Positions 10,377 through 54,031 of a DNA stretch of 64,000 nt are shown one piece after another; the stretch's first letter is position 1, and each line of letters begins with the position of its first letter. The notes below the pieces were generated by a model. That model was not told where the DNA came from. It searched no databases and saw only the letters and a program-made list of their open reading frames with translations. The position numbers and the translations under genes were made by a program. The stretch comes from Lytechinus pictus (lineage: Eukaryota), in contig NC_087250.1 in NCBI RefSeq assembly GCF_037042905.1, positions 13,332,001-13,396,000 on the forward strand. Direction: 5' to 3'.

Positions 10377-10595
10377 GTAAGTGATTATTTATGTTTTATT
10401 TGTAAAATAAAAGTCATCATCACCGTTTTCTCTTGCCAAGATAGGTTGTAAATCATTGACGATTGACCCGCTGCCGTGTACAGACAGCAGACCCGACGGT
10501 TGCGGGGCATCTAAGCCTGGGAGCTCCGGCCCGCTTCCCGGGCCAGAGCCCAGGAGACTCGTCCGTGTATTACTTAGTAGTTAGTAGGCTACTAC

Positions 10596-11457
10596 ACCAG
10601 GCTGAAGCCAGCGCACAAACCCAGCGCACAGAATATATTGAAGCAAGCCAGCGCACAAATCCAGCGCACAGAGCTATCGCGATACAAACCGCCCTACACC
10701 GTGTGCGTAGTCTATTACTAATTAGTCGCAGACCCTAAATACAGCTTAAATTCTCAAACGTCTCGAATATTGTCATAATGCGCACGGAAATGGTATAGTA
10801 AAAAGGCATAGTTACCGGAACTTACAGATGATTGAAAATATGGAACTTCCATAATGCACTATTCCACATTATGATTGCTTCAAATATTAGTATATGACTG
10901 ATTTGTATAACATTTGAATATAATCATTAAGAATTGAATGGAGTATGTTTCTATATGGCATGAGTGCAGCTGAAAATAATACAGATAAAGAAGAATCAAA
11001 CAAAGTTGGTAAAATGTAAACAATATCGGACAAGGTTAATAGAGTTATGATATTTCAAAGATCCGCATTTCGGCCAGTTCTATATGCATTTCTTCTTTAA
11101 CATTCAATGGAGAAAAGTAATCTCTCCTGTATATTCCCACTTTTTTAATCACATGAATTCATGATTATTCAAATTTCCTCCTCCTATAGAATTACAAATA
11201 TTGTATTAAAACTATTTAATGCATTTTCTCATTAATTTATGGACATTATTTTAATAAGAGACATCACATGATTAAAAGATGATTTCATGCAAGAGCATTT
11301 TATAAGCAAAACGAAGTTGGAACACGTCATCATAAATCACTTCAAATAGATAGTTATGACTGCGTGCATTTTATTTTCACAAAATACTGCTTACTTCAAA
11401 ATTCAGTATCAGAGTTTGATGATTGCTTCCGGATTCTCTTTTGTAAATTCAACTCTT
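10596..11457 (+). repeat. Left unique TIR of the 43-kb element
   Basis: Colinear reverse complement of 53102-53932 with substitutions and indels; four subterminal CCAGCGCACA motifs at 10608-10670. Confidence 0.92.
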
Positions 11458-11468
11458 ATTAATAACTA

Positions 11469-11711
11469 TACCCAGTTGTTGTGTGTCCGGACAGGTTGTG
11501 TGTCCGGACGATCAATTTTAGAAAGTCATTTTGAAAAATTTACAAGCGATCGAAGTTTCATCAATTTTTAGTACAAAATGTTAGGAAACAATATAAAGAA
11601 CACAACAGAAGATGATAACAGCTATTGAATTCATATTTTTAGTGTAATCCAAAGACAAAAAAGAAGGCTTCAAAAATATAAAGTGTCCGGACACCCGACC
11701 TCCCATCCTAT
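11469..11711 (+). repeat. ~240-bp dispersed repeat, copy 1
   Basis: TACCCAGTTG...GTGTCCGGACGATCAATTTTAGAAAGTCATTT...GTGTCCGGACACCC...CCCATCCTAT; a second direct copy lies at 58090-58332; absent from the right arm. Confidence 0.85.
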
Positions 11712-14503
11712 CTTATTTCCAGCGCGGAGTATGCAACCATTTTATGTGTTCTGAATTTCCTATGTGTATCAATATAGTTTTTGCTTATTCCCTAAATAAA
11801 ATGCATCAGTTAATAAATTTCATATGAAAGGTCAGTCCCTCTCGCACGGGCCTTGGAACGGGGGGGGGGGGGGGGGAGACCACATTAAATTCTCAGAAAA
11901 AATTACATAACAACTTTAAAGAACTCCCTGCGTTTCGGGGCATCTTAGACGCCGTCCCCTTTTTTGTGCACCATTTAAAGTTCACCCCTAAATCGATGAA
12001 GTGATTAATGAAGATAACTCTGGTTAATTTTCATGACATAAAATGTTATTTTCGATTAGCGGCTAATTTATTACCAGCCCCCGGCCACCAAAGCGAAAAT
12101 GTTGGAATACACATACACACATAGCGCGCGCGATATTTTCGTCAACGCACCCCGACATTTCGGGGCACCCTAGACCCCGTCCCCCTTTTCTGTGCACCAA
12201 TGTTCACCCCTAGATCGATGAAGTGATTAATAAAGATCAATTTGGTTGATTTTCAAGAAATAAAATCCTGATTTCGATTAGCGGCGAATTTATTACCAGA
12301 CCAAAGCGGAATTGTTTTAATACACGTACATAATATAGCACGCCATAATAGCAAGTGCCGTATTTTCGTCAATGCACCCCCACCTTTCGGGGCATCGTAG
12401 ACCCCGTCCCCCTTTTCTGTGCACCAATGTTCACCCCTAGATCGATAAAGTGATTAATAAAGATCAATTTGGTTGATTTTCAAGAAATAAAATCCTGATT
12501 TCGATTAGCGGCGAATTTATTACCAGACCAAAGCGGAATTGTTGGAATACACGTACATAATATAGCACGCCATAATAGCAAGTGCCGTATTTTCGTCAAT
12601 GCACCCCCACCTTTCGGGGCATCGTAGACCCCGTCCCCCTTTTCTGTGCACCAATGTTCACCCCTAGATCGATGAAGTGATTGATAAAGATCAATTTGGT
12701 TGATTTTCAAGACATAAAATGGTGATTTCGATTAGCGGCGAATTTATTACCAGACCAAAGCGGAATTGTTGGAATACACGTACATAATATAGCACGCCAT
12801 AATAGCAAGTGCCGTATTTTCGTCAATGCACCCCCACCTTTCGGGGCATCGTAGACCCCGTCCCCCTTTTCTGTGCACCAATGTTCACCCCTAGATCGAT
12901 GAAGTGATTGATAAAGATCAATTTGGTTGATTTTCAAGACATAAAATGGTGATTTCGATTAGCGGCGAATTTATTACCAGACCAAAGCGGAATTGTTGGA
13001 ATACACGTACATAATATAGCACGCCATAATAGCAAGTGCCGTAGTTTCGTCAATGCACCCCCACCTTTCGGGGCATCGTAGACCCCGTCCCCCTTTTCTG
13101 TGCACCAATGTTCACCCCTAGATCGATGAAGTGATTAATAAAAATCAATTTGATTGATTTTCAGGAAATAAAATCGTGATTTCGATTAGCGGCGAATTTA
13201 TTACCAGACCAAAGCGGAATTGTTGGAATACACGTACATAATATAGCACGCCATAATAGCAAGTGCCGTATTTTCGTCAATGCATCCCCACATTTCGGGG
13301 CATCGTAGACCCCGTCCCCCTTTTCTGTGCACCAATGTTCACCCCTAGATCGATAAAGTGATTAATAAAGATCAATTTGGTTGATTTTCAAGAAATAAAA
13401 TCCTGATTTCGATTAGCGGCGAATTTATTACCAGACCAAAGCGGAATTGCTTGAATACACGTACATAATATAGCACGCCATAATATGAAGTGCCGTATTT
13501 TCGTCAATGCACCCCCACCTTTCGGGGCATCGTAGACCCCGTCCCCCTTTTCTGTGCACCAATGTTTACCCCTAGATCGATGGAGTAATTAATAAAGATC
13601 AATTTGGTTGATTTTCAAGAAATAAAATCGTGATTATGATTAGCGGCGAATTTATTACCAGACCATAGCGGAATTGTTTGAATACACGTACATAATATAG
13701 CACGCCATAATAGCAAGTGCCGTATTTTCGTCAATGCACCCCGACATTTCGGGGCATCGTATACCCCGTCCCCCTTTTCTGTGCACCAATGTTCATCCCT
13801 AGATGGATGAAGTGATTAATAAAGATCAATTTGGTTGATTTTCAAGAGATAAAATCCTGATTTCGATTAGCGGCGAATTTATTACCAGACCAAAGCGGAA
13901 TTGTTTGAATACACGTACATAATATAGCACGCCATAATAGCAAGTGCCGTATTTTCGTCAATGCACCCCCACCTTTCGGGGCATCGTAGACCCCGTCCCC
14001 CTTTTCTGTGCACCAATGTTCACCCCTAGATCGATGAAGTGATTAATAAAGATCAATTTGGCTGATTTTCAAGAAATAAAATCGTGATTTTGATTAGCGG
14101 CGAATTTATTACCAGACCAAAGCGGAATTGTTTGAATACACGTACATAATATAGCACGCCATAATAGCAAGTGCCGTATTTTCGTCAATGCACCCCCACC
14201 TTTCGGGGCATCGTAGACCCCGTCCCCCTTTTCTGTGCACCAATGTTCACCCCTAGATCGATAAAGTGATTAATAAATATCAATTTGGTTGATTTTCAAG
14301 AAATAAAATCGTGATTTCGATTAGCGGCGAATTTATTACCAGACCAAAGCGGAATTGTTTGAATACACGTACATAATATAGCACGCCATAATAGCAAGTG
14401 CCGTATTTTCGTCAATGCACCCCCATCTTTCGGTGCATCGTAGACCCCGTCCCCCTTTTCTGTGCACCAATGTTCACCCCTAGATCGATGAAGTGATTGA
14501 TAA

Positions 14504-16942
14504 TAGGAGTGGGCTATACATGGGTCAAAAATACTTTTTTTGTAATTTCAATATGACAACAGTTTTTTTTTATTCCTTGTAATGTATCTCAACATGAAAT
14601 GACAATATTTTTTGTCTCGGGTCCGAGAAAAAAGTGTGCCGGGCCAAAATCCAAAATGGCCGCCAAAACCCCCCAAAATCACAGTTTTGGCCACAACTTT
14701 TTTATTTGGTGGTCAATTTCTCTGGTTTTGGTGTCTATTCATATGTTTTGGGGGGCAGGCAATTTGTTTTTCCTATATTTAGTATTTTTAAACCATTATT
14801 TGTAGAGTTAAAAGGTAATTATACCTAAATTTTCCAATTTTTGTAGCCTTTTTTCAGCCAAAAAGTAGGTTTTATCATCCTGGGGTTCTGGGATATTAGA
14901 TGGTACGAGGTCAACAATAGCAAGCAGCTTCATATAGCTATATTGCTTTTATTCCTCCACTTTGGGTTTTACGGATATTTGTGAAATATATCTTATTAAA
15001 TAAAAAAATGTCAGTTATCCATTGGGGCTATACAGTATATACAATGTACTGTACATACATGTACATACTGCACTGCATAAATGCATTGGCCACCATGACA
15101 TATAACAAGGCTTGTATAAACTATAGTGTCATAGAAATGAGCTCTCAGGTTTAGAATTAGATGCCTCAGAAATTGAAGATATGTTTTGTCCCAGAAATTG
15201 AGGACATGTTTTGTCAAATATGCTAATTCTCGCTACCCCAAATAGCGATTTCGCCGAGATCTGGGAAAATCCCTGTAACGTGCATTGCATTATGGGATAG
15301 CTTTTTCGGTATTACAACTTCCTGTTCGGAAGTCCAATGCACTGTTTTGCCATTCAGATCAACAGTGCCGTCATGCACAACAACACAACGTCGCTTTCGC
15401 TCGGAAAGTTCGTGATCACAACCCTCTCTTTCACGATACAGTTTAACAGTTTTACAGCCTTTTCTGCTTAAGTCACTAATTCTGCCCGACGCTTTCCATT
15501 GCACGGTATTCATCTGTCAGTTAAGATTTTTTTAAGTTCCGAAACTGATTTTTATCAATTTTGTGGTCGACGAAAAATTGAACGAAATTAATGCTGTATA
15601 TATTTAGCGTCTAGTTGAATACGATCGTGATGTCAGGCCGGTCGCTAAATGCAAAATTTTAAGATATTCATTATTTGTTTGATTTTTTATAACCAAATAA
15701 AAACATGAATAAAAATTATTTTCACGTGAAATATATATTTTTTATTTTATTTATAATTCAAATGGAATCAAAACTGACCAAATGTAATAAAAAGTATTAT
15801 ACTCTGTACATATTACGCTGATTGGCATCGGTTTCAGCGTGGTGGAAAACTCAGTATCGCGAACCTCGCGCGAGCATGACTCTAAACCGGAAGTGGTGAT
15901 GACGACCCGACGGAGTGAAAATTATCTCGTCTCGCGCATTATGAGATTTTTGTTCCTATTTGGGGTAGCGAGAATTCAGGGGGCGGAGAGAGGTAATTTA
16001 CACTGTAGCTATTCTGGGCCCCGTTGCATAAAAATTTACCATTATGTTAACTTAACTTAATGGTAACTTGCATGCAATCCTTTATTCTGATTGGCTGTTG
16101 ATCAGCGTTACCATGATACTAGTAGTTATCTGACCCCATAAACATAGGCCAGTTAGACACCAGAACCAGGTTTTTAAAAAAGCCTCCAAATGAAGAAGAT
16201 ATGGCTAAAAATTTGATGTACATATATATACATGTATGTGATATTTACATGTAAGTGTAATTTATGTTGCTGGTTTCACCATGTACATCAGCTGACAAGG
16301 TATCAAATTCACAATCTAATTCTAAACCTTTGAAGCTCATTTCTATGACACTAGTTTATATACAGGCCTTGTCATATGCCATGGTGGTCAATGCATGGAT
16401 ATATGCAGTGTAGTATGTACAGTGCATTGTACACCGTATAGCCCCTATGGATAAATGACATTTTCTTTTATTTCACAAATATCCGTAAAACCCAAAGTGG
16501 AGGAATAAAAGCAATATAGCTATATGAAGCTGCTTGCTATTGTTGACCTCGTACCATCTAATATCCCAGAACCCCAGGATGATAAAACCTACTTTTTGGC
16601 TGAAAAAAGGCTACAAAAATTGGAAAATTTAGGTATAATTACCTTTTAACTCTACAAATAATGGAATAAAAGTACTAATTATAGGAAAAACAAATTGCCT
16701 GCCCCCCAAAACATATGAATAGACACCAAAACCAGAGAAATTGACCACCAAATAAAAAAGTTGTGGCCAAAACTGTGATTTTGGGGGGTTTTGGCGGCCA
16801 TTTTGGATTTTGGCCCGGCACACTTTTTTCTCGGACCCGAGACAAAAAATATTGTCATTTCATGTTGAGATAAGGTAAAAGGAACACAAAAAAACTGTTC
16901 CCACAGTAAAACCAAAAATCACCCATTTATAGCCCACTCCTA
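14504..16942. mobile_element. 2.4-kb long-TIR non-autonomous DNA element inserted in the satellite
   Basis: TAGGAGTGGGCTATA ... TATAGCCCACTCCTA; inverted arms ~14504-15162 vs ~16314-16942; TSD TTGATAA (14497-14503 and 16943-16949; boundary ambiguous, 3, 5 or 7 bp). The satellite resumes in register after it. Confidence 0.9.
15229..15972. mobile_element. MITE nested within the 2.4-kb element
   Basis: Perfect TIR CTCGCTACCCCAAATAG / CTATTTGGGGTAGCGAG flanked by AATT on both sides (a 4-bp AWWT TSD would fit Sola1; inference). Confidence 0.78.
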
Positions 16943-19900
16943 TTGATAAAGATCAATTTGGTTGATTTTCAAGAAATAAAATCGTGATTTCGATTAGCGG
17001 CGAATTTATTACCAGACCAAAGCGGAATTGTTTGAATACACGTACATATAGCACGCCATAATAGCAAGTGCCGTATTTTCGTCAATGCACCCCCACCTTT
17101 CGGGGCATCGTGACCCCGTCCCCCTTTTCTGTGCACCAATGTTCACCCCTAGATCGATGAAGTGATTAATAAAGATCAATTTGGTTGATTTTCAAGAAAT
17201 AAAATCGTGATTTCGATTAGCGGCGAATGTATTACCAGACCAAAGCGGAATTGTTTGAATACACGTACATAATATAGCACGCCATAATAGCAAGTGCCGT
17301 ATTTTCGTCAATGCACCCCCACCTTTCGGGGCATCGTAAACCCCGTCCCCCTTTTCTGTGCACCAATGTTCACCCCTAGATCGATAAAGTGATTAATAAA
17401 GATCAATTTGGTTGATTTTCAAGAAATAAAATCCTGATTTCGATTAGCGGCGAATTTATTACCAGACCAAAGCGGAATTGTTTGAATACACGTACATAAT
17501 ATAGCACGCCATAATAGCAAGTGCCGTATTTTCGTCAATGCACCCCTACCTTTCTGGGCATCGTAGACCCCGTCCCCCTTTTCTGTGCACCAATGTTCAC
17601 CCCTAGATCGATAAAGTGATTGATAAAGATCAATTTGGTTGATTTTCAAGAAATAAAATCCTGATTTCGATTAGCGGCGAATTTATTACCAGTAGACCAA
17701 AGCGGAATTGTTTGAATACACGTACATAATATAGCACGCCATAATAGCAAGTGCCGTATTTTCGTCAATGCACCCCCACCTTTCGGGGCATCGTAGACCC
17801 CGTCCCCCTTTTCTGTGCACCAATGTTCACCCCTAGATCGATGAAGTGATTGATAAAGATCAATTTGGTTGATTTTCAAGAAATAAAATCCTGATTTCGA
17901 TTAGCGGCGAATTTATTACCAGACCAAAGCGGAATTGTTTGAATACACGTACATATAGCACGCCATAATAGCAAGTGCCGTATTTTCGTCAATGCACCCC
18001 CACCTTTCGGGGCATCGTGACCCCGTCCCCCTTTTCTGTGCACCAATGTTCACCCCTAGATCGATGAAGTGATTAATAAAGATCAATTTGGTTGATTTTC
18101 AAGAAATAAAATCGTGATTTCGATTAGCGGCGAATGTATTACCAGACCAAAGCGGAATTGTTTGAATACACGTACATAATATAGCACGCCATAATAGCAA
18201 GTGCCGTATTTTCGTCAATGCACCCCCACCTTTCGGGGCATCGTAAACCCCGTCCCCCTTTTCTGTGCACCAATGTTCACCCCTAGATCGATAAAGTGAT
18301 TAATAAAGATCAATTTGGTTGATTTTCAAGAAATAAAATCCTGATTTCGATTAGCGGCGAATTTATTACCAGACCAAAGCGGAATTGTTTGAATACACGT
18401 ACATAATATAGCACGCCATAATAGCAAGTGCCGTATTTTCGTCAATGCACCCCCACCTTTCGGGGCATCGTAGACCCCGTCCCCCTTTTCTGTGCACCAA
18501 TGTTCACCCCTAGATCGATAAAGTGATTAATAAAGATCAATTTGGATGATTTTCAAGAAATAAAATCGTGATTTCGATTAGCGGCGAATTTATTACCAGA
18601 CCAAAGCGGAATTGTTGGAATACACGTACATAATATAGCACGCCATAATAGCAAGTGCCGTATTTTCGTCAATGCACCCCTACCTTTCTGGGCATCGTAG
18701 ACCCCGTCCCCCTTTTCTGTGCACCAATGTTCACCCCTAGATCGATAAAGTGATTGATAAAGATCAATTTGGTTGATTTTCAAGAAATAAAATCCTGATT
18801 TCGATTAGCGGCGAATTTATTACCAGTAGACCAAAGCGGAATTGTTTGAATACACGTACATAATATAGCACGCCATAATAGCAAGTGCCGTATTTTCGTC
18901 AATGCACCCCCACCTTTCGGGGCATCGTGACCCCGTCCCCCTTTTCTGTGCACCTATGTTCACCCCTAGATCGATGAAGTGATTAATAAAGATCAATTTG
19001 GTTGATTTTCAAGAAATAAAATCGTGATTTCGATTAGCGGCGAATGTATTACCAGACCAAAGCGGAATTGTTTGAATACACGTACATAATATAGCACGCC
19101 ATAATAGCAAGTGCCGTATTTTCGTCAATGCACCCCCACCTTTCGGGGCATCGTAAACCCCGTCCCCCTTTTCTGTGCACCAATGTTCACCCCTAGATCG
19201 ATAAAGTGATTAATAAAGATCAATTTGGATGATTTTCAAGAAATAAAATCGTGATTTCGATTAGCGGCGAATTTATTACCAGACCAAAGCGGAATTGTTG
19301 GAATACACGTACATAATATAGCACGCCATAATAGCAAGTGCCGTATTTTCGTCAATGCACCCCTACCTTTCTGGGCATCGTAGACCCCGTCCCCCTTTTC
19401 TGTGCACCAATGTTCACCCCTAGATCGATAAAGTGATTGATAAAGATCAATTTGGTTGATTTTCAAGAAATAAAATCCTGATTTCGATTAGCGGCGAATT
19501 TATTACCAGACCGAAGCGGAATTGTTTGAATACACGTACATATAGCACGCCATAATAGCAAGTGCCGTATTTTCGTCAATGCACCCCCACCTTTCGGGGC
19601 ATCGTGACCCCGTCCCCCTTTTCTGTGCACCAATGTTCACCCCTAGATCGATGAAGTGATTAATAAAGATCAATTTGGTTGATTTTCAAGAAATAAAATC
19701 GTGATTTCGATTAGCGGCGAATGTATTACCAGACCAAAGCGGAATTGTTTGAATACACGTACATAATATAGCACGCCATAATATCAAGTGCCGTATTTTC
19801 GTCAATGCACCCCCACCTTTCGGGGCATCGTAAACCCCGTCCCCCTTTTCTGTGCACCAATGTTCACCCCTAGATCGATAAAGTGATTAATAAAGATCAA

Positions 19901-22900
19901 TTTGGTTGATTTTCAAGAAATAAAATCCTGATTTCGATTAGCGGCGAATTTATTACCAGACCAAAGCGGAATTGTTTGAATACACGTACATAATATAGCA
20001 CGCCATAATAGCAAGTGCCGTATTTTCGTCAATGCACCCCTACCTTTCTGGGCATCGTAGACCCCGTCCCCCTTTTCTGTGCACCAATGTTCACCCCTAG
20101 ATCGATAAAGTGATTGATAAAGATCAATTTGGTTGATTTTCAAGAAATAAAATCCTGATTTCGATTAGCGGCGAATTTATTACCAGTAGACCAAAGCGGA
20201 ATTGTTTGAATACACGTACATAATATAGCACGCCATAATAGCAAGTGCCGTATTTTCGTCAATGCACCCCCACCTTTCGGGGCATCGTAGACCCCGTCCC
20301 CCTTTTCTGTGCACCAATGTTCACCCCTAGATCGATGAAGTGATTGATAAAGATCAATTTGGTTGATTTTCAAGAAATAAAATCGTGATTTCGATTAGCG
20401 GCGAATTTATTACCAGACCAAAGCGGAATTGTTTGAATACACGTACATATAGCACGCCATAATAGCAAGTGCCATATTTTCGTCAATGCACCCCCACCTT
20501 TCGGGGCATCGTGACCCCGTCCCCCTTTTCTGTGCACCAATGTTCACCCCTAGATCGATGAAGTGATTAATAAAGATCAATTTGGTTGATTTTCAAGAAA
20601 TAAAATCGTGATTTCGATTAGCGGCGAATGTATTACCAGACCAAAGCGGAATTGTTTGAATACACGTACATAATATAGCACGCCATAATAGCAAGTGCCG
20701 TATTTTCGTCAATGCACCCCCACCTTTCGGGGCATCGTAAACCCCGTCCCCCTTTTCTGTGCACCAATGTTCACCCCTAGATCGATAAAGTGATTAATAA
20801 AGATCAATTTGGTTGATTTTCAAGAAATAAAATCCTGATTTCGATTAGCGGCGAATTTATTACCAGACCAAAGCGGAATTGTTTGAATACACGTACATAA
20901 TATAGCACGCCATAATAGCAAGTGCCGTATTTTCGTCAATGCACCCCCACCTTTCGGGGCATCGTAGACCCCGTCCCCCTTTTCTGTGCACCAATGTTCA
21001 CCCCTAGATCGATAAAGTGATTAATAAAGATCAATTTGGATGATTTTCAAGAAATAAAATCCTGATTTCGATTAGCGGCGAATTTATTACCAGACCAAAG
21101 CGGAATTGTTGGAATACACGTACATAATATAGCACGCCATAATAGCAAGTGCCGTATTTTCGTCAATGCACCCCTACCTTTCTGGGCATCGTAGACCCCG
21201 TCCCCCTTTTCTGTGCACCAATGTTCACCCCTAGATCGATAAAGTGATTGATAAAGATCAATTTGGTTGATTTTCAAGAAATAAAATCCTGATTTCGATT
21301 AGCGGCGAATTTATTACCAGTAGACCAAAGCGGAATTGTTTGAATACACGTACATAATATAGCACGCCATAATAGCAAGTGCCGTATTTTGGTCAATGCA
21401 CCCCCACCTTTCGGGGCATCGTAGACCCCGTCCCCCTTTTCTGTGCACCAATGTTCACCCCTAGATCGATAAAGTGATTAATAAAGATCAATTTGGATGA
21501 TTTTCAAGAAATAAAATCCTGATTTCGATTAGCGGCGAATTTATTACCAGACCAAAGCGGAATTGTTGGAATACACGTACATAATATAGCACGCCATAAT
21601 AGCAAGTGCCGTATTTTCGTCAATGCACCCCTACCTTTCTGGGCATCGTAGACCCCGTCCCCCTTTTCTGTGCACCAATGTTCACCCCTAGATCGATAAA
21701 GTGATTGATAAAGATCAATTTGGTTGATTTTCAAGAAATAAAATCCTGATTTCGATTAGCGGCGAATTTATTACCAGTAGACCAAAGCGGAATTGTTTGA
21801 ATACACGTACATAATATAGCACGCCATAATAGCAAGTGCCGTATTTTCGTCAATGCACCCCCACCTTTCGGGGCATCGTGACCCCGTCCCCCTTTTCTGT
21901 GCACCTATGTTCACCCCTAGATCGATGAAGTGATTAATAAAGATCAATTTGGTTGATTTTCAAGAAATAAAATCGTGATTTCGATTAGCGGCGAATGTAT
22001 TACCAGACCAAAGCGGAATTGTTTGAATACACGTACATAATATAGCACGCCATAATAGCAAGTGCCGTATTTTCGTCAATGCACCCCCACCTTTCGGGGC
22101 ATCGTAAACCCCGTCCCCCTTTTCTGTGCACCAATGTTCACCCCTAGATCGATAAAGTGATTAATAAAGATCAATTTGGTTGATTTTCAAGAAATAAAAT
22201 CCTGATTTCGATTAGCGGCGAATTTATTACCAGACCAAAGCGGAATTGTTTGAATACACGTACATAATATAGCACGCCATAATAGCAAGTGCCGTATTTT
22301 GGTCAATGCACCCCCACCTTTCGGGGCATCGTAGACCCCGTCCCCCTTTTCTGTGCACCAATGTTCACCCCTAGATCGATAAAGTGATTAATAAAGATCA
22401 ATTTGGATGATTTTCAAGAAATAAAATCGTGATTTCGATTAGCGGCGAATTTATTACCAGACCAAAGCGGAATTGTTGGAATACACGTACATAATATAGC
22501 ACGCCATAATAGCAAGTGCCGTATTTTCGTCAATGCACCCCTACCTTTCTGGGCATCGTAGACCCCGTCCCCCTTTTCTGTGCACCAATGTTCACCCCTA
22601 GATCGATAAAGTGATTGATAAAGATCAATTTGGTTGATTTTCAAGAAATAAAATCCTGATTTCGATTAGCGGCGAATTTATTACCAGTAGACCAAAGCGG
22701 AATTGTTTGAATACACGTACATAATATAGCACGCCATAATAGCAAGTGCCGTATTTTCGTCAATGCACCCCCACCTTTCGGGGCATCGTGACCCCGTCCC
22801 CCTTTTCTGTGCACCTATGTTCACCCCTAGATCGATGAAGTGATTAATAAAGATCAATTTGGTTGATTTTCAAGAAATAAAATCGTGATTTCGATTAGCG

Positions 22901-40900: not shown

Positions 40901-43875
40901 GCAAGTGCCGTATTTTCGTCAATGCACCCCCACCTTTCGGGGCATCGTGACCCCGTCCCCCTTTTCTGTGCACCTATGTTCACCCCTAGATCGATGAAGT
41001 GATTAATAAAGATCAATTTGGTTGATTTTCAAGAAATAAAATCGTGATTTCGATTAGCGGCGAATGTATTACCAGACCAAAGCGGAATTGTTTGAATACA
41101 CGTACATAATATAGCACGCCATAATAGCAAGTGCCGTATTTTCGTCAATGCACCCCCACCTTTCGGGGCATCGTAAACCCCGTCCCCCTTTTCTGTGCAC
41201 CAATGTTCACCCCTAGATCGATAAAGTGATTAATAAAGATCAATTTGGTTGATTTTCAAGAAATAAAATCCTGATTTCGATTAGCGGCGAATTTATTACC
41301 AGACCAAAGCGGAATTGTTTGAATACACGTACATAATATAGCACGCCATAATAGCAAGTGCCGTATTTTCGTCAATGCACCCCCACCTTTCGGGGCATCG
41401 TAGACCCCGTCCCCCTTTTCTGTGCACCAATGTTCACCCCTAGATCGATAAAGTGATTGATAAAGATCAATTTGGTTGATTTTCAAGAAATAAAATCCTG
41501 ATTTCGATTAGCGGCGAATTTATTACCAGTAGACCAAAGCGGAATTGTTTGAATACACGTACATAATATAGCACGCCATAATAGCAAGTGCCGTATTTTC
41601 GTCAATGCACCCCCACCTTTCGGGGCATCGTGACCCCGTCCCCCTTTTCTGTGCACCTATGTTCACCCCTAGATCGATAAAGTGATTAATAAAGATCAAT
41701 TTGGTTGATTTTCAAGAAATAAAATCGTAATTTCGATTAGCGGCGAATGTATTACCAGACCAAAGCGGAATTGTTTGAATACACGTACATAATATAGCAC
41801 GCCATAATAGCAAGTGCCGTATTTTCGTCAATGCACCCCCACCTTTCGGGGCATCGTAAACCCCGTCCCCCTTTTCTGTGCACCAATGTTCACCCCTAGA
41901 TCGATAAAGTGATTAATAAAGATCAATTTGGTTGATTTTCAAGAAATAAAATCCTGATTTCGATTAGCGGCGAATTTATTACCAGACCAAAGCGGAATTG
42001 TTTGAATACACGTACATAATATAGCACGCCATAATAGCAAGTGCCGTATTTTGGTCAATGCACCCCCACCTTTCGGGGCATCGTAGACCCCGTCCCCCTT
42101 TTCTGTGCACCAATGTTCACCCCTAGATCGATAAAGTGATTAATAAAGATCAATTTGGATGATTTTCAAGAAATAAAATCCTGATTTCGATTAGCGGCGA
42201 ATTTATTACCAGACCAAAGCGGAATTGTTGGAATACACGTACATAATATAGCACGCCATAATAGCAAGTGCCGTATTTTCGTCAATGCACCCCTACCTTT
42301 CTGGGCATCGTAGACCCCGTCCCCCTTTTCTGTGCACCAATGTTCACCCCTAGATCGATAAAGTGATTGATAAAGATCAATTTGGTTGATTTTCAAGAAA
42401 TAAAATCCTGATTTCGATTAGCGGCGAATTTATTACCAGTAGACCAAAGCGGAATTGTTTGAATACACGTACATAATATAGCACGCCATAATAGCAAGTG
42501 CCGTATTTTCGTCAATGCACCCCCACCTTTCGGGGCATCGTGACCCCGTCCCCCTTTTCTGTGCACCTATGTTCACCCCTAGATCGATGAAGTGATTAAT
42601 AAAGATCAATTTGGTTGATTTTCAAGAAATAAAATCGTGATTTCGATTAGCGGCGAATGTATTACCAGACCAAAGCGGAATTGTTTGAATACACGTACAT
42701 AATATAGCACGCCATAATAGCAAGTGCCGTATTTTCGTCAATGCACCCCCACCTTTCGGGGCATCGTAAACCCCGTCCCCCTTTTCTGTGCACCAATGTT
42801 CACCCCTAGATCGATAAAGTGATTAATAAAGATCAATTTGGTTGATTTTCAAGAAATAAAATCCTGATTTCGATTAGCGGCGAATTTATTACCAGACCAA
42901 AGCGGAATTGTTTGAATACACGTACATAATATAGCACGCCATAATAGCAAGTGCCGTATTTTCGTCAATGCACCCCCACCTTTCGGGGCATCGTAGACCC
43001 CGTCCCCCTTTTCTGTGCACCAATGTTCACCCCTAGATCGATAAAGTGATTAATAAAGATCAATTTGGATGATTTTCAAGAAATAAAATCGTGATTTCGA
43101 TTAGCGGCGAATTTATTACCAGACCAAAGCGGAATTGTTGGAATACACGTACATAATATAGCACGCCATAATAGCAAGTGCCGTATTTTCGTCAATGCAC
43201 CCCTACCTTTCTGGGCATCGTAGACCCCGTCCCCCTTTTCTGTGCACCAATGTTCACCCCTAGATCGATAAAGTGATTGATAAAGATCAATTTGGTTGAT
43301 TTTCAAGAAATAAAATCCTGATTTCGATTAGCGGCGAATTTATTACCAGTAGACCAAAGCGGAATTGTTTGAATACACGTACATAATATAGCACGCCATA
43401 ATAGCAAGTGCCGTATTTTCGTCAATGCACCCCCACCTTTCGGGGCATCGTGACCCCGTCCCCCTTTTCTGTGCACCTATGTTCACCCCTAGATCGATAA
43501 AGTGATTAATAAAGATCAATTTGGTTGATTTTCAAGAAATAAAATCGTGATTTCGATTAGCGGCGAATGTATTACCAGACCAAAGCGGAATTGTTTGAAT
43601 ACACGTACATAATATAGCACGCCATAATAGCAAGTGCCGTATTTTCGTCAATGCACCCCCACCTTTCGGGGCATCGTAAACCCCGTCCCCCTTTTCTGTG
43701 CACCAATGTTCACCCCTAGATCGATAAAGTGATTAATAAAGATCAATTTGGTTGATTTTCAAGAAATAAAATCCTGATTTCGATTAGCGGCGAATTTATT
43801 ACCAGACCAAAGCGGAATTGTTTGAATACACGTACATAATATAGCACGCCATAATAGCAAGTGCCGTATTTTCGT

Positions 43876-43909
43876 CACTGAACTAGAGATACGTATCTCT
43901 AGTTCAGTG
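43876..43909. mobile_element. 34-bp perfect palindrome with 8-bp TSD; probable transposon excision footprint
   Basis: CACTGAACTAGAGATAC|GTATCTCTAGTTCAGTG flanked by ATTTTCGT (43868-43875 and 43910-43917); neighbouring monomers show the empty site. Confidence 0.85.
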
Positions 43910-44098
43910 ATTTTCGTCAATGCACCCCCACCTTTCGGGGCATCGTAGACCCCGTCCCCCTTTTCTGTGCACCAATGTTCACCCCTAGATCCATGAAGTG
44001 ATTAATAAAGATCAATTTGGTTGTTTTCAAGAAATAAAATCGTGATTTCGATTAGCGGCGAATTTATTACCAGACCAAACCGGAATTGTTGGAATACA

Positions 44099-44451
44099 AC
44101 TATTAAATTCGTCAATTGAAACAGTAAAATAGCCCTAATTTTTCCGCCACAGTAAAAAAATAGTTCCAAAGTCATTGATATATCTTCCCAATTTGGGCAA
44201 AGGAAGTTCAGTAGTTACCATTTTTAGAATCAGTGTTAGATTTTTATTGATATTCATACACTTTTGTTAATCATCAATATCATATTATAGAAAAATCGAA
44301 TGGGTTGGGTCGAACGAATATCTTTTGCATTCTTGCTGTAATTAGTCTAATGGCATCCGTAGTGCGCTTATAATCGTTCCGATGTATGAATCGCTATATA
44401 AATTGGATTACTGAATTTTAATTATTGTTACTTTTATTATTATTCTCATAG
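44099..44451. other. 353-bp unique AT-rich central spacer of the 43-kb foldback
   Basis: The left array stops at ...GGAATACA (44098) and the inverted array starts at ATTGGTGCACAG (44452). No recognisable ORF. Confidence 0.9.
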
Positions 44452-47400
44452 ATTGGTGCACAGAAAAAGGGGACGGGGTCTACGATGCCCCGAAAGGTGG
44501 GGGTGCATTGACGAACATACGGCGCCTGCTATTATGGCGTGCTATATATATTATGTACGTGTATATTCCAACAATTCCACTTTGGTCTGGTAATAAATTC
44601 GCCGCTAATCGAAATCACCATTTTATGTCTTGAAAATCAACCAAGTTGATTTTTATTAATCACTTCATCGATCTAGGGGTGAACATTGGTGCACAGAAAA
44701 GGGGTCTACGATGCCCCGAAAGGTAGGGGGTGCAAGGACGAAAATATAGCGCGTGCTATATATGTATTATATACTGTACGTGTATTCCAACAATTCCACT
44801 TTGGTCTGGTAATAAATTCGCCGCTAATCGAAATCACCATTTTATGTCTTGAAAATCAACCAAATTGATCTTCATTAATCACTACATCGATCAAGGGGTG
44901 AACATTGGTGCACAGAAAAGGGGGACGGGGTCTACGATGCCCCGAAAGGTAGGGGGTGCAAGGACGAAAATATAGCGCGTGCTATATATGTATTATATAC
45001 TGTACGTGTATTCCAACAATTCCACTTTGGTCTGGTAATAAATTCGCCGCTAATCGAAATCACCATTTTATGTCTTGAAAATCAACCAAATTGATCTTCA
45101 TTAATCACTTCATCGATCTAGGGGTGAACATTGGTGCACAGAAAAGGGGGACGGGGTCTACGATGCCCCGAAAGGTAGGGGGTGCAAGGACGAAAATATA
45201 GCGCGTGCTATATATGTATTATATACGTGTATTCCAACAATTCCACTTTGGTCTGGTAATAAATTCGCCGCTAATCGAAATCACCATTTTATGTCTTGAA
45301 AATCAACCAAATTGATCTTCATTAATCACTTCATCGATCTAGGGGTAAACATTGGTGCACAGAAAAGGGGGACGGGGTCTACGATGCCCCGAAAGGTAGG
45401 GGGTGCATTGACGAAAATACGGCGCCTGCTATTATGGCGTGCTATATATATTATGTACGTGTATATTCCAACAATTCCACTTTGGTCTGGTAATAAATTC
45501 GCCGCTAATCGAAATCACCATTTTATGTCTTGAAAATCAACCAAATTGATCTTTAATAATCACTTCATCGATCTAGGGGTAAACATTGGTGCACAGAAAA
45601 GGGGGACGGGGTCTACGATGCCCCGAAAGGTAGGGGGTGCAAGGACGAAAATATAGCGCGTGCTATATATATACGTGTATTCCAACAATTCCACTTTGGT
45701 CCGGTAATAAATTCGCCGCTAATCGAAATCACCATTTTATGTCTTGAAAATCAACCAAATTGATCTTTATTAATCACTTCATCGATCTAGGGGTGAACAT
45801 TGGTGCACAGAAAAGGGGGACGGGGTCTACGATGCCCCGAAAGGTGGGGGTGCATTGACGAAAATACGGCGCCTGCTATTATGGCGTGCTATATATATTA
45901 TGTACGTGTATATTCCAACAATTCCACTTTGGTCTGGTAATAAATTCGCCGCTAATCGAAATCACCATTTTATGTCTTGAAAATCAACCAAATTGATCTT
46001 CATTAATCACTTCATCGATCTAGGGGTGAACATTGGTGCACGGAAAAGGGGGACGGGGTCTACGATGCCCCGAAAGGTAGGGGGTGCAAGGACGAAAATA
46101 TAGCGCGTGCTATATATGTATTATATACGTGTATTCCAACAATTCCACTTTGGTCTGGTAATAAATTCGCCGCTAATCGAAATCACCATTTTATGTCTTG
46201 AAAATCAACCAAATTGATCTTCATTAATCACTTCATCGATCTAGGGGTTAACATTGGTGCACAGAAAAGGGGGACGGGGTCTACGATGCCCCGAAAGGTA
46301 GGGGGTGCAAGGACGAAAATATAGCGCGTGCTATATATGTATTATATACGTGTATTCCAACAATTCCACTTTGGTCTGGTAATAAATTCGCCGCTAATCG
46401 AAATCACCATTTTATGTCTTGAAAATCAACCAAATTGATCTTCATTAATCACTACATCGATCTAGGGGTGAACATTGGTGCACAGAAAAGGGGGACGGGG
46501 TCTACGATGCCCCGAAAGGTAGGGGGTGCAAGGACGAAAATATAGCGCGTGCTATATATGTATTATATACTGTACGTGTATTCCAACAATTCCACTTTGG
46601 TCTGGTAATAAATTCGCCGCTAATCGAAATCACCATTTTATGTCTTGAAAATCAACCAAATTGATCTTTATTAATCACTTCATCGATCTAGGGGTGAACA
46701 TTGGTGCACAGAAAAGGGGGACGGGGTCTACGATGCCCCGAAAGGTGGGGGTGCATTGACGAAAATACGGCGCCTGCTATTATGGCGTGCTATATATATT
46801 ATGTACGTGTATATTCCAACAATTCCACTTTGGTCTGGTAATAAATTCGCCGCTAATCGAAATCACCATTTTATGTCTTGAAAATCAACCAAATTGATCT
46901 TCATTAATCACTTCATCGATCTAGGGGTGAACATTGGTGCACAGAAAAGGGGGACGGGGTCTACGATGCCCCGAAAGGTAGGGGGTGCAAGGACGAAAAT
47001 ATAGCGCGTGCTATATATGTATTATATACGTGTATTCCAACAATTCCACTTTGGTCTGGTAATAAATTCGCCGCTAATCGAAATCACCATTTTATGTCTT
47101 GAAAATCAACCAAATTGATCTTCATTAATCACTACATCGATCTAGGGGTGAACATTGGTGCACAGAAAAGGGGGACGGGGTCTACGATGCCCCGAAAGGT
47201 AGGGGGTGCAAGGACGAAAATATAGCGCGTGCTATATATGTATTATATACGTGTATTCCAACAATTCCACTTTGGTCTGGTAATAAATTCGCCGCTAATC
47301 GAAATCACCATTTTATGTCTTGAAAATCAACCAAATTGATCTTCATTAATCACTTCATCGATCTAGGGGTGAACATTGGTGCACAGAAAAGGGGGACGGG

Positions 47401-50400
47401 GTCTACGATGCCCCGAAAGGTAGGGGGTGCAAGGACGAAAATATAGCGCGTGCTATATATGTATTATATACGTGTATTCCAACAATTCCACTTTGGTCTG
47501 GTAATAAATTCGCCGCTAATCGAAATCACCATTTTATGTCTTGAAAATCAACCAAATTGATCTTCATTAATCACTACATCGATCTAGGGGTGAACATTGG
47601 TGCACAGAAAAGGGGGACGGGGTCTACGATGCCCCGAAAGGTAGGGGGTGCAAGGACGAAAATATAGCGCGTGCTATATATGTATTATATACTGTACGTG
47701 TATTCCAACAATTCCACTTTGGTCTGGTAATAAATTCGCCGCTAATCGAAATCACCATTTTATGTCTTGAAAATCAACCAAATTGATCTTCAATAATCAC
47801 TTCATCGATCTAGGGGTGAACATTGGTGCACAGAAAAAAGGGACGGGGTCTACGATGCCCCGAAAGGTGGGGGTGCATTGACGAAAATACGGCGCCTGCT
47901 ATTATGGCGTGCTATATATATTATGTACGTGTATATTCCAACAATTCCACTTTGGTCTGGTAAAAATTCGCCGCTAATCGAAATCACCATTTTATGTCTT
48001 GAAAATCAACCAAATTGATCTTCATTAATCACTACATCGATCTAGGGGTGAACATTGGTGCACAGAAAAGGGGGACGGGGTCTACGATGCCCCGAAAGGT
48101 AGGGGGTGCAAGGACGAAAATATAGCGCGTGCTATATATGTATTATATACGTGTATTCCAACAATTCCACTTTGGTCTGGTAATAAATTCGCCGCTAATC
48201 GAAATCACCATTTTATGTCTTGAAAATCAACCAAATTGATCTTCATTAATCACTTCATCGATCTAGGGGTAAACATTGGTGCACAGAAAAAGGGGACGGG
48301 GTCTACGATGCCCCGAAAGGTGGGGGTGCATTGACGAAAATACGGCGCCTGCTATTATGGCGTGCTATATATATTATGTACGTGTATATTCCAACAATTC
48401 CACTTTGGTCTGGTAATAAATTCGCCGCTAATCGAAATCACCATTTTATGTCTTGAAAATCGACCAAATTGATCTTCATTAATCACTTCATCGATCTAGG
48501 GGTAAACATTGGTGCACAGAAAAGGGGGACGGGGTCTACGATGCCCCGAAAGGTAGGGGGTGCAAGGACGAAAATATAGCGCGTGCTATATATATACGTG
48601 TATTCCAACAATTCCACTTTGGTCTGGTAATAAATTCGCCGCTAATCGAAATCACCATTTTATGTCTTGAAAATCAACCAAATTGATCTTTATTAATCAC
48701 TTCATCGATCTAGGGGTGAACATTGGTGCACAGAAAAAGGGGACGGGGTCTACGATGCCCCGAAAGGTGGGGGTGCATTGACGAAAATACGGCGCCTGCT
48801 ATTATGGCGTGCTATATATATTATGTACGTGTATATTCCAACAATTCCACTTTGGTCTGGTAATAAATTCGCCGCTAATCGAAATCACCATTTTATGTCT
48901 TGAAAATCAACCAAATTGATCTTCATTAATCACTTCATCGATCTAGGGGTGAACATTGGTGCACAGAAAAGGGGGACGGGGTCTACGATGCCCCGAAAGG
49001 TAGGGGGTGCAAGGACGAAAATATAGCGCGTGCTATATATGTATTATATACTGTACGTGTATTCCAACAATTCCACTTTGGTCTGGTAATAAATTCGCCG
49101 CTAATCGAAATCACCATTTTATGTCTTGAAAATCAACCAAATTGATCTATATTAATCACTTCATCGATCTAGGGGTGAATATTGGTGCACAGAAAAAGGG
49201 GACGGGGTCTACGATGCCCCGAAAGGTGGGGGTGCATTGACGAAAATACGGCGCCTGCTATTATGGCGTGCTATATATATTATGTACGTGTATATTCCAA
49301 CAATTCCACTTTGGTCTGGTAATAAATTCGCCGCTAATCGAAATCACCATTTTATGTCTTGAAAATCAACCAAATTGATCTTCATTAATCACTTTATCGA
49401 TCTAGGGGTGAACATTGGTGCACAGAAAAGGGGGACGGGGTCTACGATGCCCCGAAAGGTAGGGGGTGCAAGGACGAAAATATAGCGCGTGCTATATATG
49501 TATTATATACGTGTATTCCAACAATTCCACTTTGGTCTGGTAATAAATTCGCCGCTAATCGAAATCACCATTTTATGTCTTGAAAATCAACCAAATTGAT
49601 CTTTATTAATCACTTCATCGATCTAGGGGTGAACATTGGTGCACAGAAAAATGGGACGGGGTCTACGATGCCCCGAAAGGTGGGGGTGCATTGACGAAAA
49701 TACGGCGCCTGCTATTATGGCGTGCTATATATATTATGTACGTGTATATTCCAACAATTCCACTTTGGTCTGGTAATAAATTCGCCGCTAATCGAAATCA
49801 CCATTTTATGTCTTGAAAATCAACCAAATTGATCTTTATTAATCACTTCATCGATCTAGGGGTGAACATTGGTGCACAGAAAAGGGGGACGGGGTCTACG
49901 ATGCCCCGAAAGGTAGGGGGTGCAAGGACGAAAATATAGCGCGTGCTATATATGTATTATATACTGTACGTGTATTCCAACAATTCCACTTTGGTCTGGT
50001 AATAAATTCGCCGCTAATCGAAATCACCATTTTATGTCTTGAAAATCAACCAAATTGATCTTTATTAATCACTTCATCGATCTAGGGGTGAACATTGGTG
50101 CACAGAAAAAGGGGACGGGGTCTACGATGCCCCGAAAGGTGGGGGTGCATTGACGAAAATACGGCGCCTGCTATTATGGCGTGCTATATATATTATGTAC
50201 GTGTATATTCCAACAATTCCACTTTGGTCTGGTAATAAATTCGCCGCTAATCGAAATCACCATTTTATGTCTTGAAAATCAACCAAATTGATCTTCATTA
50301 ATCACTTCATCGATCTAGGGGTGAACATTGGTGCACAGAAAAAGGGGACGGGGTCTACGATGCCCCGAAAGGTGGGGGTGCATTGACGAAAATACGGCGC

Positions 50401-52870
50401 CTGCTATTATGGCGTGCTATATATATTATGTACGTGTATATTCCAACAATTCCACTTTGGTCTGGTAATAAATTCGCCGCTAATCGAAATCACCATTTTA
50501 TGTCTTGAAAATCAACCAAATTGATCTTCATTAATCACTTCATCGATCTAGGGGTGAACATTGGTGCACAGAAAAGGAGGACGGGGTCTACGATGCCCCG
50601 AAAGGTAGGGGGTGCAAGGACGAAAATATAGCGCGTGCTATATATGTATTATATACTGTACGTGTATTCCAACAATTCCACTTTGGTCTGGTAATAAATT
50701 CGCCGCTAATCGAAATCACCATTTTATGTCTTGAAAATCAACCAAATTGATCTTCATTAATCACTTCATCGATCTAGGGGTGAACATTGGTGCACAGAAA
50801 AGGGGGACGGGGTCTACGATGCCCCGAAAGGTAGGGGGTGCAAGGACGAAAATATAGCGCGTGCTATATATGTATTATATACGTGTATTCCAACAATTCC
50901 ACTTTGGTCTGGTAATAAATTCGCCGCTAATCGAAATCACCATTTTATGTCTTGAAAATCAACCAAATTGATCTTCATTAATCACTTCATCGATCTATAT
51001 AGGGGTAAACATTGGTGCACAGAAAAGGAGGACGGGGTCTACGATGCCCCGAAAGGTAGGGGGTGCAAGGACGAAAATATAGCGCGTGCTATATATGTAT
51101 TATATACTGTACGTGTATTCCAACAATTCCACTTTGGTCTGGTAATAAATTCGCCGCTAATCGAAATCACCATTTTATGTCTTGAAAATCAACCAAATTG
51201 ATCTTCATTAATCACTACATCGATCTAGGGGTGAACATTGGTGCACAGAAAAGGGGGACGGGGTCTACGATGCCCCGAAAGGTAGGGGGTGCAAGGACGA
51301 AAATATAGCGCGTGCTATATATGTATTATATACTGTACGTGTATTCCAACAATTCCACTTTGGTCTGGTAATAAATTCGCCGCTAATCGAAATCACCATT
51401 TTATGTCTTGAAAATCAACCAAATTGATCTTCATTAATCACTTCATCGATCTAGGGGTGAACATTGGTGCACAGAAAAGGGGGACGGGGTCTACGATGCC
51501 CCGAAAGGTAGGGGGTGCAAGGACGAAAATATAGCGCGTGCTATATATGTATTATATACGTGTATTCCAACAATTCCACTTTGGTCTGGTAATAAATTCG
51601 CCGCTAATCGAAATCACCATTTTATGTCTTGAAAATCAACCAAATTGATCTTCATTAATCACTTCATCGATCTAGGGGTAAACATTGGTGCACAGAAAAG
51701 GGGGACGGGGTCTACGATGCCCCGAAAGGTAGGGGGTGCATTGACGAAAATACGGCGCCTGCTATTATGGCGTGCTATATATATTATGTACGTGTATATT
51801 CCAACAATTCCACTTTGGTCTGGTAATAAATTCGCCGCTAATCGAAATCACCATTTTATGTCTTGAAAATCAACCAAATTGATCTTCATTAATCACTTCA
51901 TCGATCTAGGGGTAAACATTGGTGCACAGAAAAGGGGGACGGGGTCTACGATGCCCCGAAAGGTAGGGGGTGCAAGGACGAAAATATAGCGCGTGCTATA
52001 TATATACGTGTATTCCAACAATTCCACTTTGGTCTGGTAATAAATTCGCCGCTAATCGAAATCACCATTTTATGTCTTGAAAATCAACCAAATTGATCTT
52101 TATTAATCACTTCATCGATCTAGGGGTAAACATTGGAGCACAGAAAAATGGGACGGGGTCTACGATGCCCCGAAAGGTGGGGGTGCATTGACGAAAATAC
52201 GGCGCCTGCTATTATGGCGTGCTATATATATTATGTACGTGTATATTCCAACAATTCCACTTTGGTCTGGTAATAAATTCGCCGCTAATCGAAATCACCA
52301 TTTTATGTCTTGAAAATCAACCAAATTGATCTTTATTAATCACTTCATCGATCTAGGGGTGAACATTGGTGCACAGAAAAGGGGGACGGGGTCTACGATG
52401 CCCCGAAAGGTAGGGGGTGCAAGGACGAAAATATAGCGCGTGCTATATATGTATTATATACTGTACGTGTATTCCAACAATTCCACTTTGGTCTGGTAAT
52501 AAATTCGCCGCTAATCGAAATCACCATTTTATGTCTTGAAAATCAACCAAATTGATCTTCATTAATAACTTCATCGATCTAGGGGTGAACATTGGTGCAC
52601 AGAAAAGGGGGACGGGGTCTACGATGCCCCGAAAGGTGGAGGTGCATTGACGAAAATACGGCACTTGCTATTATGGCGTGCTATATTATGTACGTGTATT
52701 CCAACAATTCCGCTTTGGTCTGGTAGTAAATTCGCCGCTAATCGAAATCACGATTTTATGTCTTGAAAATCAACCAAATTGATCTTTAATAATCACTTAA
52801 TCGATCTAGGGGTGAACATTGGTGCACAGAAAAGGGGGACGGGGTCTACGATGCCCCGAAATGCAGGGGG
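44452..52870 (-). repeat. Satellite array, right arm (~37 monomers; variants of 214/221/226/233 bp), inverted relative to the left array
   Basis: Reverse complement of the left monomer with arm-specific variants (CCATTTTATGTCTTG, TTCCACTTTGG, GCAAGGACGAAAATATAGCGCGTG). Confidence 0.98.
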
Positions 52871-53101
52871 TGTAATTTTTATTGAGAATTTGATATAGAT
52901 ATTAATGTCTTCATGAATATTCATTAGGTGGGCTGATGATATCATATCGGTTATCCCCACTCGTTCTTTTGTATTTTATTATATGATTTTCTACCACTTT
53001 ATTTTTACCTGGGACTAAAACAGTTGGAACTGATTCATTACTTCAGTTATTTGTTGTTGCAACTTCTTTCATCATAATACTAATAGAGACATCATTTACA
53101 A

Positions 53102-53932
53102 AAGAGTCAAATTTACAAAAGAGAATTTTGAGGTCAGCAGTATTTTGTGAAAATAAAATGCACGCAGTCATGACTATCCATTTGAAGTTATCATGATGTC
53201 GTGTTCCAACTTTCGTTTCGCTTATAAAATGTTCTTACATGAAGTCGTTTTTTAAATCATGTAATGTCTCTTATATTAAAATAATATCCATGAATTAATG
53301 AACAAATGCATTAAATTTTGTTTGATACAATATTTTTTATTCTAGGGGGAGGAAATTTGAATATTCATAAATTCATATGATTCAAAAAGATGGAATATAC
53401 AGGAGAGATTACTTTTCTCCAATGAATGTTAAAGAAGAAATTTAAGGCATATAGAACTGGCCGAAATGCGGATCTTTAGAATATCATAACTCTGTTATCC
53501 TTGTCCGATTTTGTTTACATTTTACCAAATTTGTTTGATTCTTCTTGATCTCAATTACTTTCAGCTGCATTCATGCCATGTCATATAGAAACATACTTCC
53601 TTTAATTCTTAATATATTCAAATGTTATACAAATCAGTCATATACTAATATTTGAAGCAATCATATTGTGGAATAGTGCATTATTAAAATTCCATATTAT
53701 CAGCCATCTGTAAGTTTGGATAACTATGCCTTTTATCTGCATACCATTTTCGTGCGCATTATGACAATCTTCGAGACGTTTGAATTTAAGCTGTATTTAG
53801 GGTCTGCAACTATTAGACTATGCATACGGTGTAGGGCGGTTTGTATCGCGATAGCTCTGTGCGCTGGATTTGTGCGCTGGCTTGCTTCAATATATTCTGT
53901 GCGCTGGGTTTGTGCGCTGGCTTCAGCCTGGT
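53102..53932 (-). repeat. Right unique TIR of the 43-kb element
   Basis: Reverse complement of 10596-11457, including four TGTGCGCTGG motifs. Confidence 0.92.
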
Positions 53933-54031
53933 GGCTACTACTACTAGGCAGTCGTCAGACATCACCCATGTCATGGTAACCCACTCATTCAATAAACAAG
54001 GTTATGATATAACCTTGTTCTCAGTTATATC

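Follow-up and report, generated by a model that had tools for sequence, protein, structure and literature searches.

The window analysed here is a 64,000-bp stretch of Lytechinus pictus DNA (C6:13332001-13396000) in an 812-Mb genome assembly of 368 contigs. Positions 10596-53932 of this window are very probably occupied by one copy of a family of non-autonomous foldback DNA transposons, whose long inverted arms (10596-44098 and 44452-53932) form most of the element around a 353-bp centre and whose ends are flanked by an exact 9-bp target-site duplication. A match of this length would arise by chance at a rate of ~4e-6 per pair. The same layout, with arms dominating the element, was found in a copy read from end to end (C18) and at the centres of three others (C7, C3a, and C5). 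An earlier note on this DNA had described the 9-bp repeat around inverted termini, two inverted arrays of ~130 and ~37 monomers around a 353-bp spacer, and a mirrored transition from unique sequence into the arrays. All of these were borne out, with 133 and 38 monomers and a 353-bp spacer recovered by BLAST using a single monomer as query. Three features go beyond that initial description, namely a nested 2.4-kb element, non-homologous segments in the two arms, and differing sub-variants in the two arrays.

The inverted termini share ~0.81 kb at 88.5% identity (10595-11404 vs 53933-53123, 827 columns with 33 gaps), followed by an additional 25 bp of inverted match (11433-11457 vs 53126-53102). 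Close to the left tip, four subterminal 13-bp copies of CCAGCGCACA(A/G)A, a direct-repeat family denoted D1, lie within 10605-10685. Terminal domain and array are separated by ~470 bp in the left arm and by ~250 bp in the right, and the two segments are not homologous to each other. That of the left arm is 96-97% identical in other arms of its type (A), and only its last ~21 bp are present in the right arm. A junction motif, AAATTCTCA(G/A)(A/T)AAAAATTACA, stands on both sides ahead of the first, degenerate monomer, and the passage into the array aligns in mirror image at 84% (11923-12077 vs 52871-52720). Both arrays face inward and they represent different sub-variants, the right one being 90.6-94.3% identical to the left consensus, which is a 227-bp monomer. 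The nested element sits inside a single monomer of the left array, with 7-8 bp duplicated and the monomer phase picking up again after it. Coordinates are collected in Table 1.

Table 1 Features of the foldback copy, in window positions.
Feature	Position	Strand	Remarks
Left target-site duplication, 9 bp, GGCTACTAC	10587..10595	.	Identical to 53933-53941; abuts terminus
Left terminal inverted domain, arm type A, starts ACCAGGCTGAAGCC	10596..11457	+	88.5% to right terminus
A-arm-specific unique segment, ends with junction motif AAATTCTCAGAAAAAATTACA (11887-11907)	11458..11925	+	
Left satellite array, outer part, 12 monomers of ~227 bp	11926..14503	+	
Nested unrelated 2.4-kb element, ~600-bp inverted ends (91.6%)	14504..16941	.	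Interrupts left array
Left satellite array, inner part, 121 monomers, median 98.2% to consensus	16942..44098	+	
Central spacer, 353 bp, remnant of one inner inverted domain copy	44099..44451	.	
Right satellite array, 38 monomers	44452..52869	-	221/226/233-bp units in ~447-bp dimer
B-arm-specific unique segment, ~250 bp	52870..53122	-	93.6-99.2% in other listed B-type arms
Right terminal inverted domain, arm type B	53123..53932	-	Ends in reverse complement of ACCAGGCTGAAGCC
Right target-site duplication, 9 bp, GGCTACTAC	53933..53941	.	Directly outside terminus

The 22 nt at the tip of the terminus match the genome 41 times (20 on the plus and 21 on the minus strand), and a reversed-pattern control gave no match. 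Thirty-four of these matches resolve into 17 inward-facing pairs of 7.5-115 kb, together 637.9 kb. A further eight ends are solitary, seven of them recovered with the 22-nt terminus and the eighth with a 13-nt terminus. The left terminal domain as a whole has 44 matches genome-wide. The window structure had been presented in the earlier note as a single 43-kb element; its foldback structure stands, while its uniqueness does not. Regions sampled from these loci comprised the ends, four centres, and one complete copy (C18). Across the 17 loci, all 31 ends examined follow the same order of terminus, unique segment, and inward array, upholding the proposal that the arrays belong to the inverted arms and are not a later insertion. 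The largest pair, C8:11291302-11406438, spans 115 kb with arms of roughly 16 and 99 kb, and a 64-kb stretch of this copy contains no match to the sampled motifs. One lone right end (C5:~56356896-56453788) is followed by a minus-strand array of at least 97 kb, with no left terminus on the contig.

Target sites were checked in 15 of the 17 pairs (C12 and C21 were left out). Eleven of 13 other pairs have exact 9-bp duplications, and the window copy and the 7.5-kb copy on C13 bring the count to 13 of 15. For the C13 copy, the right flank was taken from C368, a 100%-identical mirror contig of that locus. All 13 exact duplications differ from one another. In 45 of 45 listed comparisons between ends at different loci, homology starts at position 992-1001, where 1001 is the terminus. 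Distinct duplications and unrelated flanks indicate that the copies reached their sites by transposition and not by segmental duplication, and such a pattern cannot be an assembly palindrome. Both ends insert together at a new site and generate a 9-bp duplication of the kind left by staggered cuts. Spread by segmental duplication would suit the high identity between copies, but homology that ends exactly at the termini, together with a separate duplication for every copy, refutes it, and we give it practically no weight.

We also consider it very improbable that the inverted arrays are an artefact, whether a mis-join or a foldback chimera of long-read assembly. Long inverted satellite arrays are hard to assemble, array lengths were taken without a check against reads, and duplicate contigs do occur here, C368 being one case and C332, which mirrors part of the C25 element, another. 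However, an artefact would have to reproduce one architecture at 17 loci with matching duplications. It would also have to yield unlike arms, since in the window copy the termini differ by 11.5%, the array variants differ, each arm has its own unique segment, and a foreign element is nested in one arm only.

Arms cluster by their first 330 bp into type A (16 arms, including a ~94% sub-type), type B (11 arms), and type D (4 arms), with 90-93% identity between clusters and up to 100% within them. Among the 14 pairs with both ends read, nine are A/B, two A/A, two A/D, and one D/D. The unlike arms of the window copy are thus the usual state of the family, implying that this asymmetry was inherited through transposition. 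Terminal domains at different loci are 0.996-1.000 identical (counting mismatches only) for several pairs, so the last movements were recent. A 27-nt doublet of the subterminal motif, allowing up to three mismatches, has 78 matches genome-wide, every one of them at a family terminus. The subterminal 13-bp motifs, four per terminus, are likely transposase-binding sites.

From the outside inward, an element consists of a ~0.8-kb terminal domain, a short arm-specific segment, an inward array of ~227-bp monomers, and, where copies are better preserved, inner inverted domains of ~0.7 kb on either side of a non-coding loop of ~1.9 kb. A transposase supplied in trans would bind the subterminal repeats and move the element by cut-and-paste.

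The centre of the family is best seen in the C7 and C3a copies, where a loop of ~1.9 kb is framed by two inverted copies of a ~0.7-kb inner domain, with the two opposing arrays adjoining on the outside. These two centres are 97% alike, with an extra 1.8-kb nested insertion in C3a, and the same inner domains and loop are present in C5. The 353-bp centre of the window copy is 99% identical to C7:3563422-3563774, and it recurs as an inverted pair around the centres of C7 and C3a, so the window centre appears to be what is left of one inner domain. Deletion has probably removed the loop and the other inner domain from the window copy. Two side observations concern the nature of this central DNA. 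About 254 bp of the 353-bp spacer match a dispersed repeat (~1,968 first-look candidates) at 89-90% identity, and ~0.9 kb of the family loop (C18 centre, L046:2371-3453) matches another (~4,753 candidates) at 75-79%. Given this resemblance to abundant dispersed repeats, the loop is probably old nested repeat DNA and not a functional core.

C5 and C3a both combine a B-type left arm with an A-type right arm, have the same ~0.6-kb stretch inserted in the A terminus, and match at 98% in their centres, yet their duplications differ (CTTCCCAAG vs CAACGAAAG). A progenitor with these features thus transposed as a unit. With the B...A arms as the common reference, the C3a centre reappears in C5 as its reverse complement, and the inner array beside the B arm of C5 matches the inner array beside the A arm of C3a (98.05% vs 91.15%). 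Recombination between inverted arrays would yield precisely such a flipped centre and would redistribute monomers between the arms without altering their total. Exchange between arms would therefore be a simple route to lopsided elements, and it may account for the 133 and 38 monomers of the window copy as well as for the unequal arms of the C8 copy.

Several observations weigh against the interpretation of these loci as a mobile family of satellite-bearing foldbacks. Two of the 15 pairs are without a clean 9-bp duplication (8 bp in C2a, degenerate in C10). Neither an empty site nor a presence/absence polymorphism was seen; in the left flank of the window copy only 314 bp (10282-10595) are unique, and they occur once in the assembly. 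The searches revealed no transposase, and the 17 MULE-domain matches in the genome all fall outside the elements. An autonomous partner did not emerge from searches with the Pfam MULE domain, the 13-nt terminus, and the 27-nt doublet, other transposase families lying outside these searches; the latter two patterns are confined to family ends apart from four singletons, where three are expected from the control. The elements account for a minority of the genome's monomers, the 17 pairs having room for ~2,800 at most. Array types are mosaic and follow arm type only in part, and the deep-array variant 'barcodes' differ between the closely related C2b and C16 copies. Finally, array lengths and loop orientation rest on the assembly without a read check, and the orientation of a loop between satellite arms of 11-25 kb could be an arbitrary choice of the assembler.

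The search for coding capacity gave little. None of the 52 window open reading frames (ORFs) of at least 70 aa, taken from the centre, the nested element, and the flanking DNA, reaches a Pfam gathering score, and the sole matches among them are sub-threshold, to S1 and to one DUF. The C7 and C3a centres contain no ORF longer than 121 aa, and Rfam and tRNA scans of the window returned no RNA genes. Three of the 17 Pfam MULE matches in the genome lie in open frames of 723-894 aa. Duplications of MULE elements measure 8-11 bp and those of Rehavkus 9 bp (PMC6446971, Table 1), so that the 9-bp duplications of the present family fall in the MULE range and equal the Rehavkus length. Judged from the 9-bp duplication and the architecture alone, the superfamily is most likely MULE/Rehavkus-like, an assignment we would put at about even. 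Of the Mutator/FB affiliation suggested earlier, duplication length and architecture fit, while the link to a transposase was not found; an autonomous partner with a MULE DDE transposase, also envisaged there, is not represented in the assembly by any element with these termini.

One of these MULE loci was read. At C4:3097446-3100127 (L072:3947-6628), an uninterrupted ORF of 894 aa encodes a domain of the MULE transposase type (E 4.3e-07), and tandem repeats of ~160-190 bp lie 1.2-2 kb upstream of it. The 9.9 kb read at this locus showed no inverted ends, and the locus has no similarity to the ends of the foldback family.

Satellite monomers extend well beyond the elements. Allowing one mismatch, the monomer motif has 13,243 matches in the genome (9,386 plus, 3,857 minus), with none for the control. 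For rare variants of the motif, 153 matches were sampled, of which 62 fall inside the 17 pairs, 32 in arms on lone ends, one near a centre-like stretch on C16 outside the assigned elements, and 58 on contigs without termini (48 on C197, 7 on C23, and 3 on C332). On C23, a contig of 1.799 Mb, the 227-bp satellite was present at 16 of 19 probes placed in 100-kb steps, always on the plus strand, and its monomers are 93-95% identical to the right array of the window copy. No terminus pattern searched has a match on C23. Two other contigs, C197 (41,396 bp, with a higher-order period of ~892 bp) and C156, consist of satellite only and are likewise without a family terminus. Comparison of the monomer consensus with the terminus, the unique segments, and the spacer gave chance-level matches only (at most 23 bp, E >= 0.056).

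It had been suggested that an internal repeat of the transposon expanded into the satellite, and a predominance of monomers in arrays without these termini had been named as an outcome that would refute the reading. By numbers, this outcome is what the genome shows, given the excess of monomer matches outside the pairs. With monomers mostly outside the elements, the direction from transposon repeat to satellite is unproven, and transposition itself is unaffected. The opposite order, in which an older conventional satellite, now the C23 array, was captured between transposon ends so that the elements would ride on the satellite and not be its origin, strikes us as a little short of probable. 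It is favoured by the small share of monomers held in pairs, by the single orientation of the C23 satellite without termini, and by a monomer that bears no similarity to the terminal domain, unlike that of the Tetris element compared below. However, the identity of C23 monomers to element arrays is no more than 93-95%, and the C23 array looks very homogeneous, with no matches for two of three variant patterns that give 29-79 matches; this would suit a recent amplification no less than an old origin.

Within the elements, the monomers nearest the termini are specific to arm type. The first array monomer is the same 222-bp unit in all ten strict A-type arms. The proximal arrays of C5_L and C3a_L are 0.990 identical in register but only 0.85-0.90 at an offset of one or two monomers; for C25_R and C2a_L the values are 0.993 in register and 0.975-0.981 when shifted. 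The arrays of C25 and C2a nevertheless differ by ~1.5%, compared with 0% for their termini, and related copies differ in length by up to 20 kb, as in C5 (32.9 kb) and C3a (52.7 kb). Array turnover is clearly much faster than change in the unique parts. We propose that array length shifts quickly through unequal exchange, the arms ranging from 0 to ~100 kb. Two further lines of argument were set aside. The association between arm type and array type was dropped as partial, arrays being mosaic, and the near-equal lengths of C2b and C16 (45.3 vs 45.4 kb) carry no weight because two unrelated copies, C2a and C3b, likewise agree in length (21.6 kb each).

What was carried during transposition is less certain. 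The family may transpose as a short foldback with few monomers per arm, its arrays expanding in place, so that no unit of 20-115 kb ever moved; we regard this as a serious contender, if a somewhat doubtful one. Length differences between close relatives speak for it, including the C5 and C3a copies and the ~22-kb arm of C25 beside the ~12-kb arm of C2a, whose termini are 100% identical, as do the deep variant positions that differ between the sister copies C2b and C16 and the existence of a 7.5-kb copy with a 9-bp duplication. Yet it would require 17 independent expansions of two arms while termini diverged by 0-0.4%, sister copies are collinear over their proximal ~13 monomers, and the 7.5-kb copy is a deletion derivative, its left terminal domain truncated at position 656, and not an ancestral short form.

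The bolder proposal is that elements move as intact units of 20-115 kb, ~90% of which is satellite, and plant ready-made arrays at new sites. In this scheme the termini would be brought together by snap-back of the arms, recombination between arms would flip the centre and reapportion monomers among them, and the C23 array would be an escaped descendant that has lost its termini. Deep variants are not common to sister copies, so movement of full-length arrays is not demonstrated, and we advance this proposal tentatively as the less likely account. If true, these would be among the largest duplication-bounded, non-coding cut-and-paste elements known, snap-back pairing of arms would join the termini whatever the length of the element, and the C23 array might show how a transposon gives rise to heterochromatic or centromeric satellite DNA.

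Among described systems, the closest parallel is Tetris of Drosophila virilis. Tetris has a terminal domain, a ~220-bp repeat, an inner inverted domain, and a non-coding middle domain, makes 8-10-bp duplications, has no known autonomous copy, and has a repeat, TIR-220, that also occurs in separate satellite-like arrays (PMC4079207). Compared by description, the present family has the same four-domain layout, repeats of similar length, and free arrays. It differs in scale, since Tetris is represented by three structurally complete copies with kilobase-size arrays, whereas here there are 17 pairs of 7.5-115 kb, arms of up to ~100 kb, and a free array of ~1.8 Mb. TIR-220 is also described there as having 37 bp in common with the Tetris terminal domain (PMC4079207), while the monomer here has only chance-level matches to its terminus.

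Rehavkus-type foldbacks of Tribolium are reported, in the sections consulted, to hold up to 50 satellite monomers in inverted termini, with TfSat06 termini exceeding 11 kb and a related repeat grown to an 80.5-kb array (bioRxiv 10.1101/2024.12.02.626372). They resemble the present family in placing satellites in long inverted termini, and Rehavkus in its 9-bp duplications. On the basis of those sections, spread of TfSat06 by transposition is assumed, whereas here 13 of 15 copies have intact duplications, and our arms are up to roughly ten times longer. The Rehavkus transposase, with a PHD finger and a DDE domain, is not linked to the present family, so the likeness is one of architecture and duplication length.

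Foldbacks dominated by inverted arms of tandem repeats are also familiar from the FB and FB-NOF elements of Drosophila. FB elements make 9-bp duplications, most copies are non-coding, and they have been reported to mobilise very large segments; their arms consist of short repeats of tens of bp that run almost to the tips. Here, by contrast, the first ~0.8-1.3 kb are non-repetitive apart from the four 13-bp motifs and only then give way to a 227-bp satellite. Galileo, a foldback of the P superfamily, makes 7-bp duplications. In Drosophila buzzatii its inverted arms contain tandem repeats carrying extra transposase-binding sites, as cited in PMC4079207, and it is to that extent similar to the present elements. 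It differs in encoding a P-like transposase, whereas the present family has a 9-bp duplication and revealed no coding capacity.

The literature searched, which excluded most subscription journals and supplements, contained no description of foldbacks as large as these. Nor did the search, again outside most subscription journals, return anything on sea-urchin TU elements or on three sequence strings of the family. We view the family as a very large variant of a known foldback type, set apart by its scale, by its number of intact and near-identical copies, and by its megabase array. Relative to the published cases compared, as far as their texts could be consulted, it widens the foldback size range roughly five- to ten-fold.

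It has long been asked how satellites arrive at new chromosomal sites and how transposons are converted into satellites, and the arguments have usually had to draw on degraded remnants. A single genome here offers 17 structurally complete, recently moved foldbacks with readable duplications and varied satellite arms, together with a megabase array, and it provides a clear case of satellite DNA spread by transposition. Whether arrays travel, how fast they grow and shrink, whether the centre flips, and which form came first all become testable.

The surroundings of the window copy do not support the genic locus and ~2.9-kb intron proposed for it earlier: its left neighbour is another foldback element, its right flank is a high-copy repeat, and no flank ORF reaches the Pfam threshold. 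Summed contig depths over 53835-58322 reach 10^3-10^5 in three public runs. Among four sets of low-coverage public contigs on 52900-58500, none bridges position 53932 or ends informatively there. Many contigs skip ~625 bp at 54026-54652, as if this were an insertion in some copies of the repeat.

The foldback to the left is unrelated and measures ~10.4 kb. It occupies window positions 1-10281 and begins ~120 bp further left (C6:13331878-13342281). Its arms contain 62/77-bp tandem repeats at 440-2228 (plus strand) and 7888-9801 (minus strand), and its inverted homology extends over 7-1240 vs 10157-8878 at 85.8%. The terminal 112 bp have 361 first-look candidates genome-wide, many of them paired at distances of 8.7-17.5 kb. 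Exact 9-bp duplications were found in two of four pairs checked, though not in the window copy of this neighbour. At least two foldback families of the genome have therefore been worked on by an enzyme that cuts with this spacing.

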